A DNA stretch of 32,000 nucleotides from Staphylothermus marinus F1. GTDB lineage: Archaea > Thermoproteota > Thermoprotei_A > Sulfolobales > Desulfurococcaceae. The stretch lies in NCBI RefSeq assembly GCF_000015945.1, contig NC_009033.1, positions 1,500,001 to 1,532,000 on the forward strand, in the 5' to 3' direction. The notes beneath the pieces are model-generated. The model was not told the DNA's origin, searched no databases, and saw nothing but the letters and a program-made list of their open reading frames with translations. This document shows positions 11,643 to 29,270 of the stretch, one piece after another. The position numbers and the translations under genes were made by a program. The stretch's first letter is position 1. The number at the start of each line of letters is the position of its first letter.

Positions 11643-11917
11643 TAATTAACGATCACCATGCTTTAGATAAAATAATACTTAGTTTAAAACATATGGTTTC
11701 CCTTACATCATTTTGCTACAATAAATACTTGAACAAGCTTCTCCCTCTTACAGTATTAGGATTTTAATACTTTTCATTGAGGTATCTTTAGACTATTCGC
11801 TTGTTTAGATGCTATGGTTGTTTTGGAAATTATGAAAACTATGATTGTTTTGAGGGTTAGTTGTTAGGTTCGTTTTATATATTTTTGTATAGTTTTTATT
11901 GGTGGTGGGGGTTGGGG

Positions 11918-13144
11918 GTGAGGGTTTATGCAACCGTTAAGATAAGGGCGGTTGCCCCCAATCCCAGCCTCCACCACAAACTCTATCTATTTCTTAGATC
12001 ATATTGTGACTGGACACAGTATATTATAGATAATATATGGTTTGAAGATAAGATTCCATCTATGAAGAAACTACACGACAAATTTTATGGTTTGTTGAGG
12101 AGCATGGGTTTTCGTGCACATCACTGCCACAAAATTGAGCGTAGAGCAAAAGAAATTGTTAAATCCGTTAAGAAGAATAGGGGTAGGAAACCAGTATTGA
12201 GAAAATTAACAGCTAGAATAGATTATGAAGACTATAGACTAGATTTGAGGAGTAAAACATTGAAGATAGCTGTGCTCGATAATGAATGGATAGTTTTGAA
12301 GCTTAAATGGTACAGTTACATAAACAAATATATTAGTGATGATTGGAAGCTTAAGGAAATACTTGTATCTTTTAGAAACAATAATATATGGATATACTTG
12401 GTTTTTGAGAGAGAAGTTGTTTTTAGGAAGCCTAGAACTGTTATGGGTGTTGATATTAATTTTGACAACATAACATATACTATACTGGACATGAATGGTA
12501 GATTAGTATCTATGGGTATTATTCCATTCAAGGGTTTACGTAGAGCACTTCATTATAAGAAGCTTGCTGAGAAATTGCAGAAGAGGTATCCTAGGAATTG
12601 GAGATATGTTAAATGGGTTAGAAATGTTAGAGCTAGATGGTTGGGGAGAGCTAAGAACATATTGAGAGACACATCACACTATATAGCCAAAAAGATTGTA
12701 GGGATAGCAGATGAACATAACTCGGTAATAGTATTAGAGGATCTAAAAAATATTAAATCAAATAATAAGGGTAAAAGGTTTAATTGGAGAATAAATTTCT
12801 GGACATATCGTAGAATACAGGAGTACATCTACTATAAAGCATTAATAAAGAATATTCCTGTAGCATTCATTGATCCAAAATACAGTTCTAAGAAATCACC
12901 TATAGGTGATAGATTAATTTTCATAAACTATAGGTATGTTAGGTTGCCTAATGGATTCATTGTTACTCGCGACATTATTGCTTCATGGAACCTTGCACTC
13001 AGATATCTGCGGATGAAGGGCTCTGGGTGGTCTATGTGGAGCCCCGATAACTCCCTCAATGAAGGAATGAAGCCCCAACTCAAGAGGGGGAAGCCCGTGC
13101 AAGTATCAAAAATAACCAAAATAACCATAGTTTCTAAAAGATAA
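11918..13144 (+). CDS. tnpB: TnpB/OrfB RuvC-like (RNA-guided) endonuclease, zinc-ribbon cysteines absent
   Basis: RuvC-I is VMGVDINFDN, RuvC-II is VIVLEDLKNIK and RuvC-III is VTRDIIASWNLA. GTG at 11918 is the likely start, because the upstream 19 codons of the ORF-track frame lie in the IS left end. The usual CxxC...CxxC segment is replaced by YSSKKSPIGDRL...VRLPNGF. Confidence 0.85.
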   Translation: MRVYATVKIRAVAPNPSLHHKLYLFLRSYCDWTQYIIDNIWFEDKIPSMKKLHDKFYGLLRSMGFRAHHCHKIERRAKEIVKSVKKNRGRKPVLRKLTARIDYEDYRLDLRSKTLKIAVLDNEWIVLKLKWYSYINKYISDDWKLKEILVSFRNNNIWIYLVFEREVVFRKPRTVMGVDINFDNITYTILDMNGRLVSMGIIPFKGLRRALHYKKLAEKLQKRYPRNWRYVKWVRNVRARWLGRAKNILRDTSHYIAKKIVGIADEHNSVIVLEDLKNIKSNNKGKRFNWRINFWTYRRIQEYIYYKALIKNIPVAFIDPKYSSKKSPIGDRLIFINYRYVRLPNGFIVTRDIIASWNLALRYLRMKGSGWSMWSPDNSLNEGMKPQLKRGKPVQVSKITKITIVSKR

Positions 13145-13158
13145 TGCACGGGCAACCA
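13009..13158 (+). ncRNA. candidate omega/reRNA scaffold overlapping the tnpB 3' end and right end
   Basis: The segment is conserved at nucleotide level in two loci that lack a tnpB ORF (28251-28392 plus strand, 25436-25577 minus strand). The stems gggctc/gagccc (13018-13023/13039-13044) and gcccgtgc/gcacgggc (13093-13100/13146-13153) are kept in all copies while the loops diverge. Confidence 0.4.
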
Positions 13159-13330
13159 TTAATATTTCTATCCAACCCTAAACCTTTTCATCACATAGGG
13201 GATCAAGGTAATAGATATGTTGGAGACGTAGTTGCTGATCAATTCCTTAACGGAGTCTAGCCGAGATAATTTATATATATTCATATAGGTTTATAGAATA
13301 ATAATAGTAGATACTTCTTGTAAGTATTGT

Positions 13331-15717: not shown

Positions 15718-15933
15718 TTGGGACAGAAGATCTTGGTGGCTGATTATGGTAGGCATATAGTTGAGTGTCATGGTGAAGATGGGGAATTATTGGGAGTCCT
15801 ATACTTCCCATATGTTTCAGGTGTGAAGTGGTGTGTTGATGAGAGAGTAGTGTTGTCGAGCGGTAAATACCCTAAACACACATTCTTAATACTTATAACC
15901 GGCGCCCCACCGAAACTGTTAAATATTGCATAG
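15718..15933 (+). CDS. hypothetical protein (same frame as 15250-15672)
   Basis: 71-aa ORF with a TTG start. ILVADYGRHIVECHGEDGELLGVLYF resembles an NHL-type blade. It is in the same frame as the upstream ORF but separated by four stops within 45 nt. Confidence 0.35.
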   Translation: MGQKILVADYGRHIVECHGEDGELLGVLYFPYVSGVKWCVDERVVLSSGKYPKHTFLILITGAPPKLLNIA

Positions 15934-15943
15934 GTATTTATAG

Positions 15944-16170
15944 GTGTTGGGCCTGCTCGGGATGCGGGTTTGTGGATGGAGACCTGAGGGGCAGGTCTTT
16001 AAGTGTTCAAGATGAAGGGTTTACCCCACAGCATAGGAGCTGTGGGCAGGGGTTACCCGGATCGGGGAGGAGGCCGATGATATGCTCCCCGATGAAAGGG
16101 GGGCTGAGGTTGATGAATCCCAAAGCCTACATAGGCCTATCAAGACCTACGTAGGCTGAACCCCCTACAT
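15944..16170. ncRNA. GC-rich, hairpin-dense island: candidate structured RNA of unknown class
   Basis: Hand count gives 124 G+C in 220 nt (56%) for 15951-16170, against about 38% in the next 60 nt. Four local hairpins are visible: agacctg/caggtct (15980-15998), cccacagc/gctgtggg (16025-16046), cggggag/ctccccg (16063-16091), and agcctac..tagg/ccta..gtaggct (16124-16157). The only ORF here (15972-16154) is R/G/S/P-rich and unconvincing. Confidence 0.4.
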
Positions 16171-16176
16171 AATACG

Positions 16177-16623
16177 ATGTATTCTTGCTGGTCAGGCTAC
16201 TTAATGGATTATGGTACTCAAGCATCTAACCGTGCAGATATGTTCTATATTGATAGAGTATTAATTCAATGGTATCTAGGATTCTTCGAACTAAAACTAC
16301 CCCTTCCAAAGAACACCCCCTACATAATCCGTGTTGGAAACGGTATGTATAGGAGTGGGGAGTTGATATGGGAGGAGGGGTTTGATTCATTCACACCCAT
16401 ACTAGTATTCAATAAATGCTACCTGATCTCTAGGCCTAGAACTGCTGAGTTATTATTGGAGAGGATGACGCCATACTGTAGTATTATAGCTCCAAAACCA
16501 AGTATTGAATGGGATAAGATAGCATTGTTTAAGGGGGAGTACAGTATAGATGTGCCAGGAGTTTATAGAGTTAGAGCAGTGAAGAAAGGATTTGTCGAAG
16601 TATATGCGATCTGTAAACCATGA
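16177..16623 (+). CDS. hypothetical protein
   Basis: 148-aa ATG ORF. No family recognised. Confidence 0.45.
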   Translation: MYSCWSGYLMDYGTQASNRADMFYIDRVLIQWYLGFFELKLPLPKNTPYIIRVGNGMYRSGELIWEEGFDSFTPILVFNKCYLISRPRTAELLLERMTPYCSIIAPKPSIEWDKIALFKGEYSIDVPGVYRVRAVKKGFVEVYAICKP

Positions 16624-25329: not shown

Positions 25330-25435
25330 GAGGTTGTTGTGAATAGTTTTTCGCCGAACATACTTGTTTATCTCTCCAATATTATTTGTTTCATCTCTTA
25401 TCACAGTATATGTATATTATTCGTTAGGCTATGAT

Positions 25436-25700
25436 GTGGTTGCCCGTGCATTATCTTTTGGTTATTTTGGATATTATGGGTACTTGCACGGGCTTCCCCC
25501 TCTTGTGTCGGGTTTTCATCCCTTCATCGAGGGGGCTATCGGGGCTCCACACCGACCACATAGAGCCCTTCATCTGCTTTTTATTAACCATAATATTAGT
25601 GAGGGGTTTATAAAGTGAACCCTATGCATACAAAACATGTTCCGAATAGTTTTCATAGCTTCTAAAAGAGCCGAAATACCCAAATAAATGAACAGTCTAA
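25436..25700 (-). mobile_element. MITE-like non-autonomous derivative of the IS200/IS605 element (left end plus right end/omegaRNA-like module)
   Basis: The reverse complement begins ttagactgttcatttatttgg.. (left-end-like) and ends ..aaaagataatgcacgggcaaccac (right end). It shares an identical 63-nt core with copy C and the gttcactttataaacccctcactaata junction segment. There is no tnpB ORF. Confidence 0.65.
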
Positions 25701-27312: not shown

Positions 27313-27720
27313 TTAAGCTACATAGTATATTTTAACACCTAAGGCTTCAGCTATTTCTGCCTGTTTCGCATCACTTGTGAGGAGTTCGCCGTGTTTAATT
27401 GCACATGCTATGTATAATGAATCATATAATGTAATACTATGGTTTAACGCTATCTCTAATGCTTTACCCATATATTCTTCCTGGTTTTCAAGAAATATTA
27501 TCTCTTCATCCACAAGTCTGCGAAGTTGCTTGTAGAGAAGTATTGCTTGTTTCTTCGTAATCCTCTTATATATTACTGTATGTTTCCATATAGCATTAGC
27601 AACTTCTTTTAAAACATGGTCTAAGCTATAAACACCTTGTTCTAGGTATTTTTCTATGCTCAACCAGTTTCTCTCCTTCAACAAATACTTTGCTAAGGAT
27701 GATGCATCAATAACTATCAC
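27313..27720 (-). CDS. vapC: PIN-domain VapC toxin
   Basis: MIVIDASSL..., ...LYDSLYIACAIKHGELLTSDAKQ carries the PIN acidic residues. It overlaps the upstream antitoxin gene by 14 nt. Confidence 0.85.
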   Translation of the reverse strand: MIVIDASSLAKYLLKERNWLSIEKYLEQGVYSLDHVLKEVANAIWKHTVIYKRITKKQAILLYKQLRRLVDEEIIFLENQEEYMGKALEIALNHSITLYDSLYIACAIKHGELLTSDAKQAEIAEALGVKIYYVA

Positions 27721-27952
27721 GATCCTCCCTCACATACTTATCTGCCACTCCAACGGGTGTTTCAGGCAATTGCTCTATAATTCTTCTAACCTCTCTGAGA
27801 ACTCTTCTACGGCGAAGCTCTTTGATACGCATCTCTATAAATCTACGTATCTCCTCACTCCAGTTTATCTCATCTCTAAACTCATCCATTAATTTTTTAA
27901 GCTTACGCGGGACACGAATGCTTACAACCACACTCATAATCGTAAACACCAT
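27707..27952 (-). CDS. vapB: VapB-type antitoxin (RHH/CopG-like)
   Basis: 81 aa. The N-terminus VSIRVPRKLKKLMDEF is a beta-strand/helix pattern typical of RHH antitoxins. It overlaps the start of vapC. Confidence 0.7.
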   Translation of the reverse strand: MVFTIMSVVVSIRVPRKLKKLMDEFRDEINWSEEIRRFIEMRIKELRRRRVLREVRRIIEQLPETPVGVADKYVREDRDSY

Positions 27953-28126
27953 ATATAAACACTATATAAAAAATATATATTACACTATATAAAAGTGTTA
28001 GAATTACACTTCTTGACAAGCACCATAATACGCTCTTGACAGATAGTATATTAGCTCTTAAAAGAAGTTTTAACATCCATATTTAGATCCAGAAAATTAT
28101 TAATGTATCCTTGGAAGCAAAGTGTG

Positions 28127-28392
28127 TTTAGACTATTTGCTTATTTGGATACTATGGTTGTTTTGGAAACTGTGGAAACCATGATTGTTTTAATTATTGG
28201 GTTCACTTTATAAACCCCTCACTAATATAATGGTTAATGATTTGTGAAATGCAGATGAAGGGCTCATGGTGGTCTATGTGGAGCCCCGATAGCCCCCTCG
28301 ATGAAGGGATGAAAACCCGACACAAGAGGGGGAAGCCCGTGCAGATATCCAAAGTTTCCAAAACAACCAAAAGATAAAGCACGGGCAACCAC
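28127..28392 (+). mobile_element. MITE-like non-autonomous derivative of the IS200/IS605 element (left end plus right end/omegaRNA-like module)
   Basis: 28127-28197, tttagactatttgcttatttggatactatggttgttttggaaactgtggaaaccatgattgtttt, aligns with the IS left end at 11787 onward. 28251-28392 aligns with the tnpB 3' end and right end at 13009-13158. tnpB itself is absent. Confidence 0.65.
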
Positions 28393-28490
28393 TATGATGT
28401 ATGTGAGGGGTAAGCATGGATGCTAATACTTGGTTCATCCATACCATGATCGGATACAATATATTTTCTGAGCGGACATTAATGCTTTAT

Positions 28491-28914
28491 TCATAACCTG
28501 GTTTTTAAATATTCGATCTTTGCACGTATATCGCTTAGTTCTTGGTATGATTTAAATTTTAGCCTAGTAGCTAGTGCTGGTATTTTCTCAACCACAACTA
28601 TCCCTTCTAGTGCTCTAACCCTGAACCATGAGGGGGTGTAGTCGAGAACTCTTACATCAACAGGTATTTTAACAAGTTCTTCCAGTTCCTCAGATAATTG
28701 ATCCTCGTACTCTTGCACCCTACTATATGGTATCTTATAACCTGTAAACACAGCTACATCTATGTCTCGGAAAGACTCGTATTCGATAAATCCTCCATAA
28801 ATAACTGCTAAGAGAACCTCATCCCTCCTACTTAGAGCACCTGCTATTATCTTTGCTAACCTGGACCTCTCCCCCGATCAAGTCTGTGGAATTCAAATCT
28901 TTTCTTATCTTCAA
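28491..28914 (-). pseudogene. MNT nucleotidyltransferase with a frameshift in a C5/G5 run (28871-28875)
   Basis: The NTase motif AVIYGGFIEYESFRDIDVAV lies upstream of the only in-frame start (GTG 28751) and is preceded by a TGA. The N-terminus LKIRKDLNSTDLIGGE (TTG 28914, overlapping the HepT stop) is in another frame. The two frames join at the G5 run. Confidence 0.6.
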
Positions 28915-29270
28915 GGGTCCTTAGAGACATGACTTCTTACCTCTTCAATGAACTTCTCAATAATTTGTATACCATTACTTTTAGCTTCTAAATATATTTT
29001 CTCATCATCTACATTCCAATATCTATGTACTACCATGTTGCGTAGAAATGCTAACGACTTCATTCCCTTAGCAGTCTCTGAGCTAATAACGTTATTTCTG
29101 AGAAGTTTTTCAAACACATCTCTATAGGTCCTAGCTTCTTCGCCGAAACATTTTCTTAGCAGATAAAGTCCTAGATCTGCTGAGCTCTCAATAATCAACA
29201 CTATAGAATATCTCATTGAGAACCGTGATCTTCTACTAGTAATGAATGATCTAAAGTCCTCTCTGATCAA
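28911..29270 (-). CDS. hepT: HepT-type HEPN toxin (DUF86)
   Basis: The Rx4H motif is in LRNMVVHRYWNVD. 119 aa with a TTG start. Here HepT lies upstream of the MNT gene, the reverse of the other two pairs. Confidence 0.8.
   Translation of the reverse strand: MIREDFRSFITSRRSRFSMRYSIVLIIESSADLGLYLLRKCFGEEARTYRDVFEKLLRNNVISSETAKGMKSLAFLRNMVVHRYWNVDDEKIYLEAKSNGIQIIEKFIEEVRSHVSKDP

Follow-up and report, generated by a model that had tools for sequence, protein, structure and literature searches.

Short tnpB-less repeats of Staphylothermus marinus as MITEs of an IS607-type element and probable solo omegaRNA genes

Described relatives of the S. marinus repeats

Short derivatives of insertion sequences that have no gene of their own are known from bacteria: the PATE-like protein-less derivatives of IS200/IS605 elements in Geobacillus stearothermophilus "often encode omegaRNAs" and need TnpB in trans from other IS copies (Meers et al. 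2023; PMC10055086). IS607 has GG at both of its termini and in its target, and the TAM ends in GG (PMC6188088, PMC10690162). The genome paper of Staphylothermus marinus F1 (Anderson et al. 2009, BMC Genomics 10:145; PMC2678158) reported five IS607-family elements, among them four similar one-ORF copies (Smar_0083, Smar_0767, Smar_1150 and Smar_1546), as well as 14 repeats of about 260 nt, called putative MITEs, that resemble the upstream regions of these four one-ORF transposase genes; two genes were disrupted.

The window analysed here, 32,000 nt at positions 1,500,001-1,532,000 of the single contig of the S. marinus genome (1,570,485 bp, 35.7% G+C), contains one IS of this kind and two of the short repeats, copies B and C. 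These are the same repeats of the same genome as those of the genome paper, with about 31 tnpB-less copies found here versus 14 counted there. That paper predates TnpB biology and noted only the left-end similarity and inverted repeats; it is silent on the homology of the right end to the 3′ part of tnpB, on an RNA scaffold, on AGAC as the insertion site and on the missing transposase. In being short, in having transposon ends and in lacking a gene, the repeats are like the PATE-like elements, but the latter are bacterial, have palindromic ends and are moved by a Y1 TnpA, whereas the former are archaeal and IS607-type and carry a TATA-like box of the tnpB promoter in a genome without a transposase. 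With the IS607-family TnpB systems (CboIStron, Zedaveinyte et al., PMC10690162; IS607, IS1535 and ISC1926, Chen et al. 2018, PMC6188088), they share the absence of target duplication, a dinucleotide common to both junctions and the target, a predicted TAM with the core dinucleotide at its end, repeats situated subterminally at 20-60 bp and a putative omegaRNA at the right end; in contrast, the core in S. marinus is AC in AGAC instead of GG in TGGG, neither the elements nor the genome contain a tnpA, and an intron is absent. SisTnpB1 of Sulfolobus islandicus (PMC10640517) is likewise an archaeal thermophilic TnpB with a guide RNA derived from the 3′ end of tnpB and the right end, but it is of the IS200/IS605 type with the TAM TTTAA, unlike the S. 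marinus elements, and neither copy number nor gene-less derivatives are mentioned in the searched passages of that report.

The interpretation preferred here, with a probability of about 0.8, is that copies B and C are MITEs derived from a TnpB-only IS of the IS607 family in S. marinus and would act as promoter-equipped solo omegaRNA genes served in trans by four TnpB paralogues. As the repeats had already been published as MITEs and omegaRNA-only elements are known in bacteria, they are a clean example and not a new system. What is new is that empty sites define the exact ends and AGAC as the place of insertion; also new are the AC core, the association with serine recombinases, the finding that no transposase is encoded, the count of copies in the genome and the evidence for constraint at the RNA level.

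Anatomy, census and insertion site

In both copy B and copy C, some 65 nt from the IS left end are joined to the last ~140 nt of the IS (Table 1). A repeat scan of the window aligned the left end of the IS (11782-11851) with 28122-28191 over 70 nt at 86% identity, its right end (13008-13127) with 28250-28369 over 120 nt at 85% identity, and copy B with copy C in inverted orientation over 156 nt at 88% and 43 nt at 95% identity; the repeats in the window are far above chance expectation. In three-way alignments, the order common to both short copies is left end, linker with GGTTCACTTTATAAACCCCTCAC, and right-end block, the last of these corresponding to the IS segment from the final ~137 nt of the ORF to the right end. 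The 259-nt copies have no coding capacity of their own: the last ~45 tnpB codons are left without a start, and an 84-aa ORF that overlaps copy B has no Pfam match.

Table 1. Features of the IS and of copies B and C (positions in the window), with examples of one subfamily (positions in the genome)
Feature	Position	Strand	Remarks
Parent-type IS	11794-13162	+	AGAC 11790-11793; TATA-like box 11874-11881; tnpB 11918-13144; scaffold 13009-13162
Copy C	28134-28392	+	259 nt; IS left end, linker and omegaRNA-like scaffold
AGAC of copy C	28130-28133	+	host DNA outside the element; target motif and predicted TAM
Left end of copy C	28134-28197	+	86% identical to the IS left end
Linker of copy C	28198-28250	+	TATA-like box TTTATAAA at 28207-28214 and presumed short leader
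OmegaRNA-like scaffold of copy C	28251-28392	+	stem 1 28260-28286; stem 2 28293-28332; terminal hairpin 28335-28386
Tail AACCAC of copy C	28387-28392	+	right end
Predicted guide of copy C	28393-28412	+	first ~16-20 nt of the right flank; identity drops after CCAC
Copy B	25694-25436	-	259 nt; scaffold and right end 25436-25577; TATA-like box 25607-25614; left end diverged, up to 25694
AGAC of copy B	25698-25695	-	target motif; seen in the sequence itself and in the all-copy alignment
Predicted guide of copy B	25416-25435	-	putative; minus-strand flank directly 3′ of the right end
8-nt-loop subfamily, examples	genome 644263-644479, 646718-646935, 473764-473977		

An earlier note, made from the letters of the window alone, had described both copies as a left end connected through a joining segment to a guide-RNA-like right end, with the RNA-encoding part of the IS kept and the nuclease gene lost. 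This architecture was confirmed in both copies, and neither segment is part of an unrelated, longer conserved gene, but the limits of both had to be moved. The left-end match of copy C, given as 28127-28197, is real as a similarity; its first three letters (TTT, 28127-28129) are chance flank, followed by the target AGAC, and the element begins only at 28134. Copy B, given as 25436-25700 on the minus strand with a more diverged left end, reaches only to 25694. A simple internal deletion of a present IS copy was ruled out as the origin of the short copies, as some 35 nt that separate the scaffold from the TATA-like box match neither end of the present IS copies. At least two further deletion forms are found in the genome (at 66709 and 1338467), and an isolated relic of ~43 nt of the right end of the family (...GCACAGACAACCAC) is located in the window at 2539-2581 on the minus strand, without a scaffold upstream. 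The neighbourhood of copy C (27313-29270) is rich in toxin-antitoxin-like genes, including a HepT-like ORF (28911-29270) and a PIN-domain ORF (27313-27720) that is preceded by a small partner.

The genome contains four full-length copies of the IS with intact tnpB, identified by BLASTN: 78555-79918, 767768-769135, 1112948-1114314 and the window copy, which terminates in CCAT and not CCAC. There are also about 30-31 tnpB-less short copies or fragments, identified by BLASTN with the IS and both copies and by a covariance model, and the left-end similarity noticed in the window thus extends to about 30 other copies. The covariance model (R1), built on the 5′ two-thirds of the scaffold, gives 108 bits to copy C and 105.6 bits to copy B and matches 35 scaffolds in the S. 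marinus genome, four of them within the IS copies; this is the highest number among 121 sampled genomes of the order. The next highest numbers, 20 and 13, belong to two genomes of another genus (G049 and G122; e.g., loci L065 and L066), in which some scaffolds are located away from any tnpB match at E <= 1e-20; solo copies probably exist in that genus too, to judge from these positions.

Among the copies, the loop of the terminal hairpin has three lengths: ~36-45, 12 and 8 nt. The subfamily with the 8-nt loop, comprising at least seven loci, one of which is empty in the sister species, has kept the stems and lost the right-end copy of the subterminal repeat motif, so that it is the stems, and not the putative protein-binding motif, that are preserved at the right end. 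The same subfamily suggests that the left-end repeats suffice for mobilisation.

The ends of the elements can be placed exactly. In pairwise comparisons of 23 near-complete copies, the average identity is 0.98 in AGAC against 0.27 in the flank to its left, lies at 0.78-0.96 in the interior of the element and is 0.32 just past CCAC. In a sister species of the same genus, with flanks 83-92% identical, three orthologous sites are empty and read ...gaaga-AGAT-tatatgg..., ...aataag-AGAC-ttagtcc... and ...ctgaaa-AGAC-ataagggg..., that is, left flank, AGA(C/T) and right flank, with no target duplication. Because all three empty sites retain AGA(C/T), AGAC is target DNA and the element extends from TATT... 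to ...CAACCAC, inserted 3′ of AGAC. Reading frames interrupted by several copies are regained only when 1 or 4 nt of AGAC stay. The dinucleotide AC ends both the target and the element (AG-AC/TATT...CAACC-AC/); the IS in the window ends in AT, so that its junction dinucleotides are unequal. The flanks of copies B and C have no DNA-level counterpart in the sister genome, and the ends were therefore defined on the three other copies.

The IS at genome position 78555 has no simple empty site, as its flanks are 12 kb apart in the sister genome. At the sister locus L026, the left flank of this IS (78555-79918, plus strand) runs via AGAT into the right flank of an inverted MITE (92437-92677, minus strand) 12.5 kb away, an arrangement that, as read from this junction, indicates an inversion by recombination between the two elements. 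A search for the reciprocal junction in the sister genome found no match.

The promoter-like box, the RNA scaffold and TnpB

The TATA-like box TTTATAAA is shared by nearly all copies, with a conservation of at least 0.9, and is located ~40 nt upstream of the scaffold in the MITEs. It aligns with TTTATATA of the IS, which precedes the tnpB start (TTG 11912 or GTG 11918) by ~30-40 nt. The box is palindromic and no clear BRE was seen beside it; it may function as a promoter, in a direction predicted solely from homology with the tnpB promoter. The usual archaeal spacing from box to start would put the transcription start of copy C near 28237, ~14 nt before the scaffold.

The 142-nt right-end blocks of copies C and B adopt the same three-stem fold, at -50.6 and -50.9 kcal/mol with z-scores of -4.34 and -4.33, respectively, versus +0.44 for the left-end half. 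When 16 sequences from six genera were analysed by RNAalifold, stems 1 and 2 were recovered. Five of the seven pairs of stem 2 are changed on both sides across genera (e.g., CCCCCUC/GAGGGGG to CCCUGCA/UGCAGGG or CUCUG/CAGAG); the observed covariation score was reached by none of 500 shuffles, 97.5% of the cells are paired, and slid registers collapse. Stem 1 is invariant across genera, which makes it uninformative for covariation, and the terminal hairpin is always present in the five other genera with unrelated sequences, followed by a short single-stranded tail (AACCAC here, AAACCC elsewhere). In the tnpB-less copies, the scaffold and stem columns are 0.905 identical versus 0.795 for the other columns of the element (Mann-Whitney p = 5e-7), a difference that could partly result from gene conversion from the IS copies or from mutational bias, the scaffold being G+C-rich. 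Folding energy alone is not decisive for the strand, as the reverse strand folds almost equally well (z = -4.0); the scaffold was assigned to its strand by the orientation of tnpB and by three G-U pairs. No Rfam family matched the window at the gathering threshold. The fold, the covariation, the extra conservation and the variable 3′ flank support the interpretation that the right-end block behaves like the scaffold of a TnpB omegaRNA.

The guide is predicted to be the variable DNA just 3′ of the right end and the TAM to be the AGAC 5′ of the left end, the placement of the guide following the rule for TnpB omegaRNAs (PMC10055086, PMC10690162). Near-matches to the guides (up to two mismatches in 16 nt) occur at roughly the level that we would expect for A+T-rich 16-mers; of those inspected, the first four for each guide, none adjoins AGAC as a second target. 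As for the proposal that the short copies could supply extra guides to TnpB, the guide of each copy corresponds, in the sequence, to the flank of that copy only.

The ORF of the IS encodes a TnpB, with a score of 32.5 bits versus a cut-off of 26.3 for the Pfam family Cas12f1-like_TNB and matches at 1e-6 to solved PDB structures of TnpB/Cas12f, in which the RuvC residues D (GVD) and E (LED) are aligned; the third RuvC aspartate (TRD) was read from the motif only. The zinc-ribbon cysteines of TnpB/Cas12f (CxxC...CxxC) are absent from 12870-12990 (residues ~320-355) and likewise from L003:1360-1480, and since this TnpB lineage is without them, its nuclease activity is only presumed. The earlier note had taken this TnpB to be the single one available, which was incorrect for the genome as a whole: all four tnpB ORFs of the main IS family are open. 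With pairwise dN/dS of 0.12-0.27 and dS of 0.27-0.66, they are old paralogues under purifying selection and not decaying copies. The homology block 13009-13162 overlaps the end of the ORF, which has its stop codon at 13144, and reaches the right end of the IS (13162). Compared with the rest of tnpB, the last 48 codons (13001-13144) show reduced synonymous change in all six pairwise comparisons and higher non-synonymous change in five, as would be expected of a sequence under the dual constraint of coding and RNA and as would fit an overlapping RNA.

A fifth, distant TnpB (834292-835305) is 25% identical. Only a 55-aa ORF is located upstream of its gene; this ORF has no Pfam match and is presumably a truncated Smar_0846. 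A second, unrelated MITE family is represented in the window at 15900-16250, with a 90% identical copy at genome position 440382-440649 and an incomplete one at 1116784-1116905. The tail of the window repeat matches sequence immediately 3′ of the fifth tnpB, and this family is probably that element's own solo right-end derivative.

Transposition and the supply of guides in trans

Searches of the S. marinus genome for the Y1 transposase domain (PF01797) and for the resolvase (serine recombinase) domain found neither; both gave matches in control genomes (six of 14 in the case of Y1). Ten ORFs upstream of TnpB relatives across the order include three serine recombinases with a helix-turn-helix directly upstream of tnpB (L040, L058 and L059) and no Y1 transposase; the closest of these loci is L040, the TnpB of which is 50% identical to that of the window. 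In the left end of copy C, direct repeats TGRTTGTTTT(G/A) are found at 28155-28165 and 28182-28192, or bp 22-32 and 49-59 from the tip, and the motif recurs inverted in the right end, 24-34 bp from the tip. Copy B has one right-end copy of the motif (25459-25469), and its left-end repeats are degenerate. The motif (TGRTTRTTTTG) matches the window 16 times versus 3.5 expected, eight of the 16 being in the ends of the three elements, and its repeats resemble the subterminal TnpA-binding repeats of IS1535. Insertion without target duplication, the dinucleotide shared by both junctions and subterminal repeats 20-60 bp from the ends are all features of IS607 elements, and a serine TnpA is what is missing; the elements were concluded to be at best tnpA-less members or derivatives of the IS607 type, linked to serine transposases by association only. 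The Y1 transposase of IS200/IS605 elements is found neither in the genome nor beside the relatives examined, and as for terminal palindromes, the strong hairpin at the right end belongs to the RNA scaffold and the left end folds no better than shuffled sequences. The short copies have the attributes of MITEs: a length of 259 nt without coding of their own, both ends in common with a gene-bearing IS, ~31 dispersed copies and three empty orthologous sites. Mobilisation in trans, as had been suggested from the window, is therefore attested for earlier times, by the sites that are empty in the sister species, but not necessarily for the present; since no transposase is encoded now, the copies are probably immobile.

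According to the preferred interpretation, each MITE retains ~65 nt of left end with the subterminal repeats that would be the binding sites of a serine transposase, a TATA-like box of the tnpB type, and the complete ~140-nt omegaRNA scaffold up to the right end, tnpB itself being gone. Transcription from the box would yield a scaffold RNA of ~155 nt that reads into the right flank, the first ~16-20 nt of which would serve as the guide. Any of the four intact paralogues might then provide the TnpB that binds the MITE RNA in trans and cuts a chromosome copy that lacks the insertion, where AGAC adjoins the flank matched by the guide; with a filled copy as the template for repair, the MITE would be regained, in line with the published cut-and-copy model. 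The insertions of the past would have required a serine transposase acting in trans.

The right-end block might instead have been kept in the MITEs only as cis-acting DNA for transposition, without a functional RNA, its conservation being due to recent spread or gene conversion. Any non-autonomous element must retain both of its ends, and the right end has an inverted copy of the left-end repeat motif; nevertheless, this explanation is unlikely, as the block extends ~140 nt inward, far past the 20-60 bp used by transposases of the IS607 family (PMC6188088), the scaffold columns are more conserved than the left end that holds the binding repeats, and the stems covary across genera. Moreover, within the right end the repeat motif is confined to the hairpin loop, and this loop has been deleted in the 8-nt-loop subfamily while the stems were kept. 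Still less probable is that the elements are of the IS200/IS605 type and were mobilised in single-stranded form by a Y1 tyrosine transposase. Their insertion strictly 3′ of a conserved tetranucleotide without duplication and the strong hairpin 6 nt from the right end would be in keeping with such a mechanism, but it is opposed by the lack of any Y1 match in a genome searched alongside control genomes that gave matches, by the serine recombinases and not Y1 transposases beside the TnpB relatives, by the absence of an unusual hairpin from the left end (z = +0.44), by the IS607-like combination of AC at both junctions with direct subterminal repeats, and by the assignment of these orfB genes to IS607 in the genome paper (PMC2678158).

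Because four diverged tnpB genes under selection and ~31 solo guide genes with their own promoter-like boxes coexist with no transposase, the TnpB/omegaRNA pair could be imagined to persist and spread by cut-and-copy homing without transposition, or to have been co-opted, as a set of guides scattered over the genome, for a role at the level of the host; this more speculative reading is considered quite improbable. That the solo guide genes serve the host or TnpB beyond self-maintenance, for instance as a dispersed library of guides against other genomic or foreign DNA, is more doubtful again and is given very little credence. The excess of ~31 solo scaffolds over four tnpB genes, the promoter-like box of each, and the long-term purifying selection on tnpB in a genome without a transposase would accord with it, but the guides are simply whatever flanks each insertion, none of the near-matches listed adjoins AGAC except at a copy's own site, and the pattern is the one that the published homing model predicts.

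The S. marinus copies, as probable solo omegaRNA MITEs, reveal no new mechanism. Their value is in being a fully delimited archaeal hyperthermophilic example, with exact ends, AGAC as the predicted TAM, a promoter prediction, a scaffold of three stems and ~31 natural guides. Some 30 intergenic "repeats" in the S. marinus genome can be given a corrected annotation. With four candidate TnpB partners and no transposase to confound the outcome, S. marinus would be a convenient natural system in which to study the use of trans-supplied guide RNAs by TnpB, and it is equally suited to the question of whether cut-and-copy homing alone maintains non-autonomous elements.
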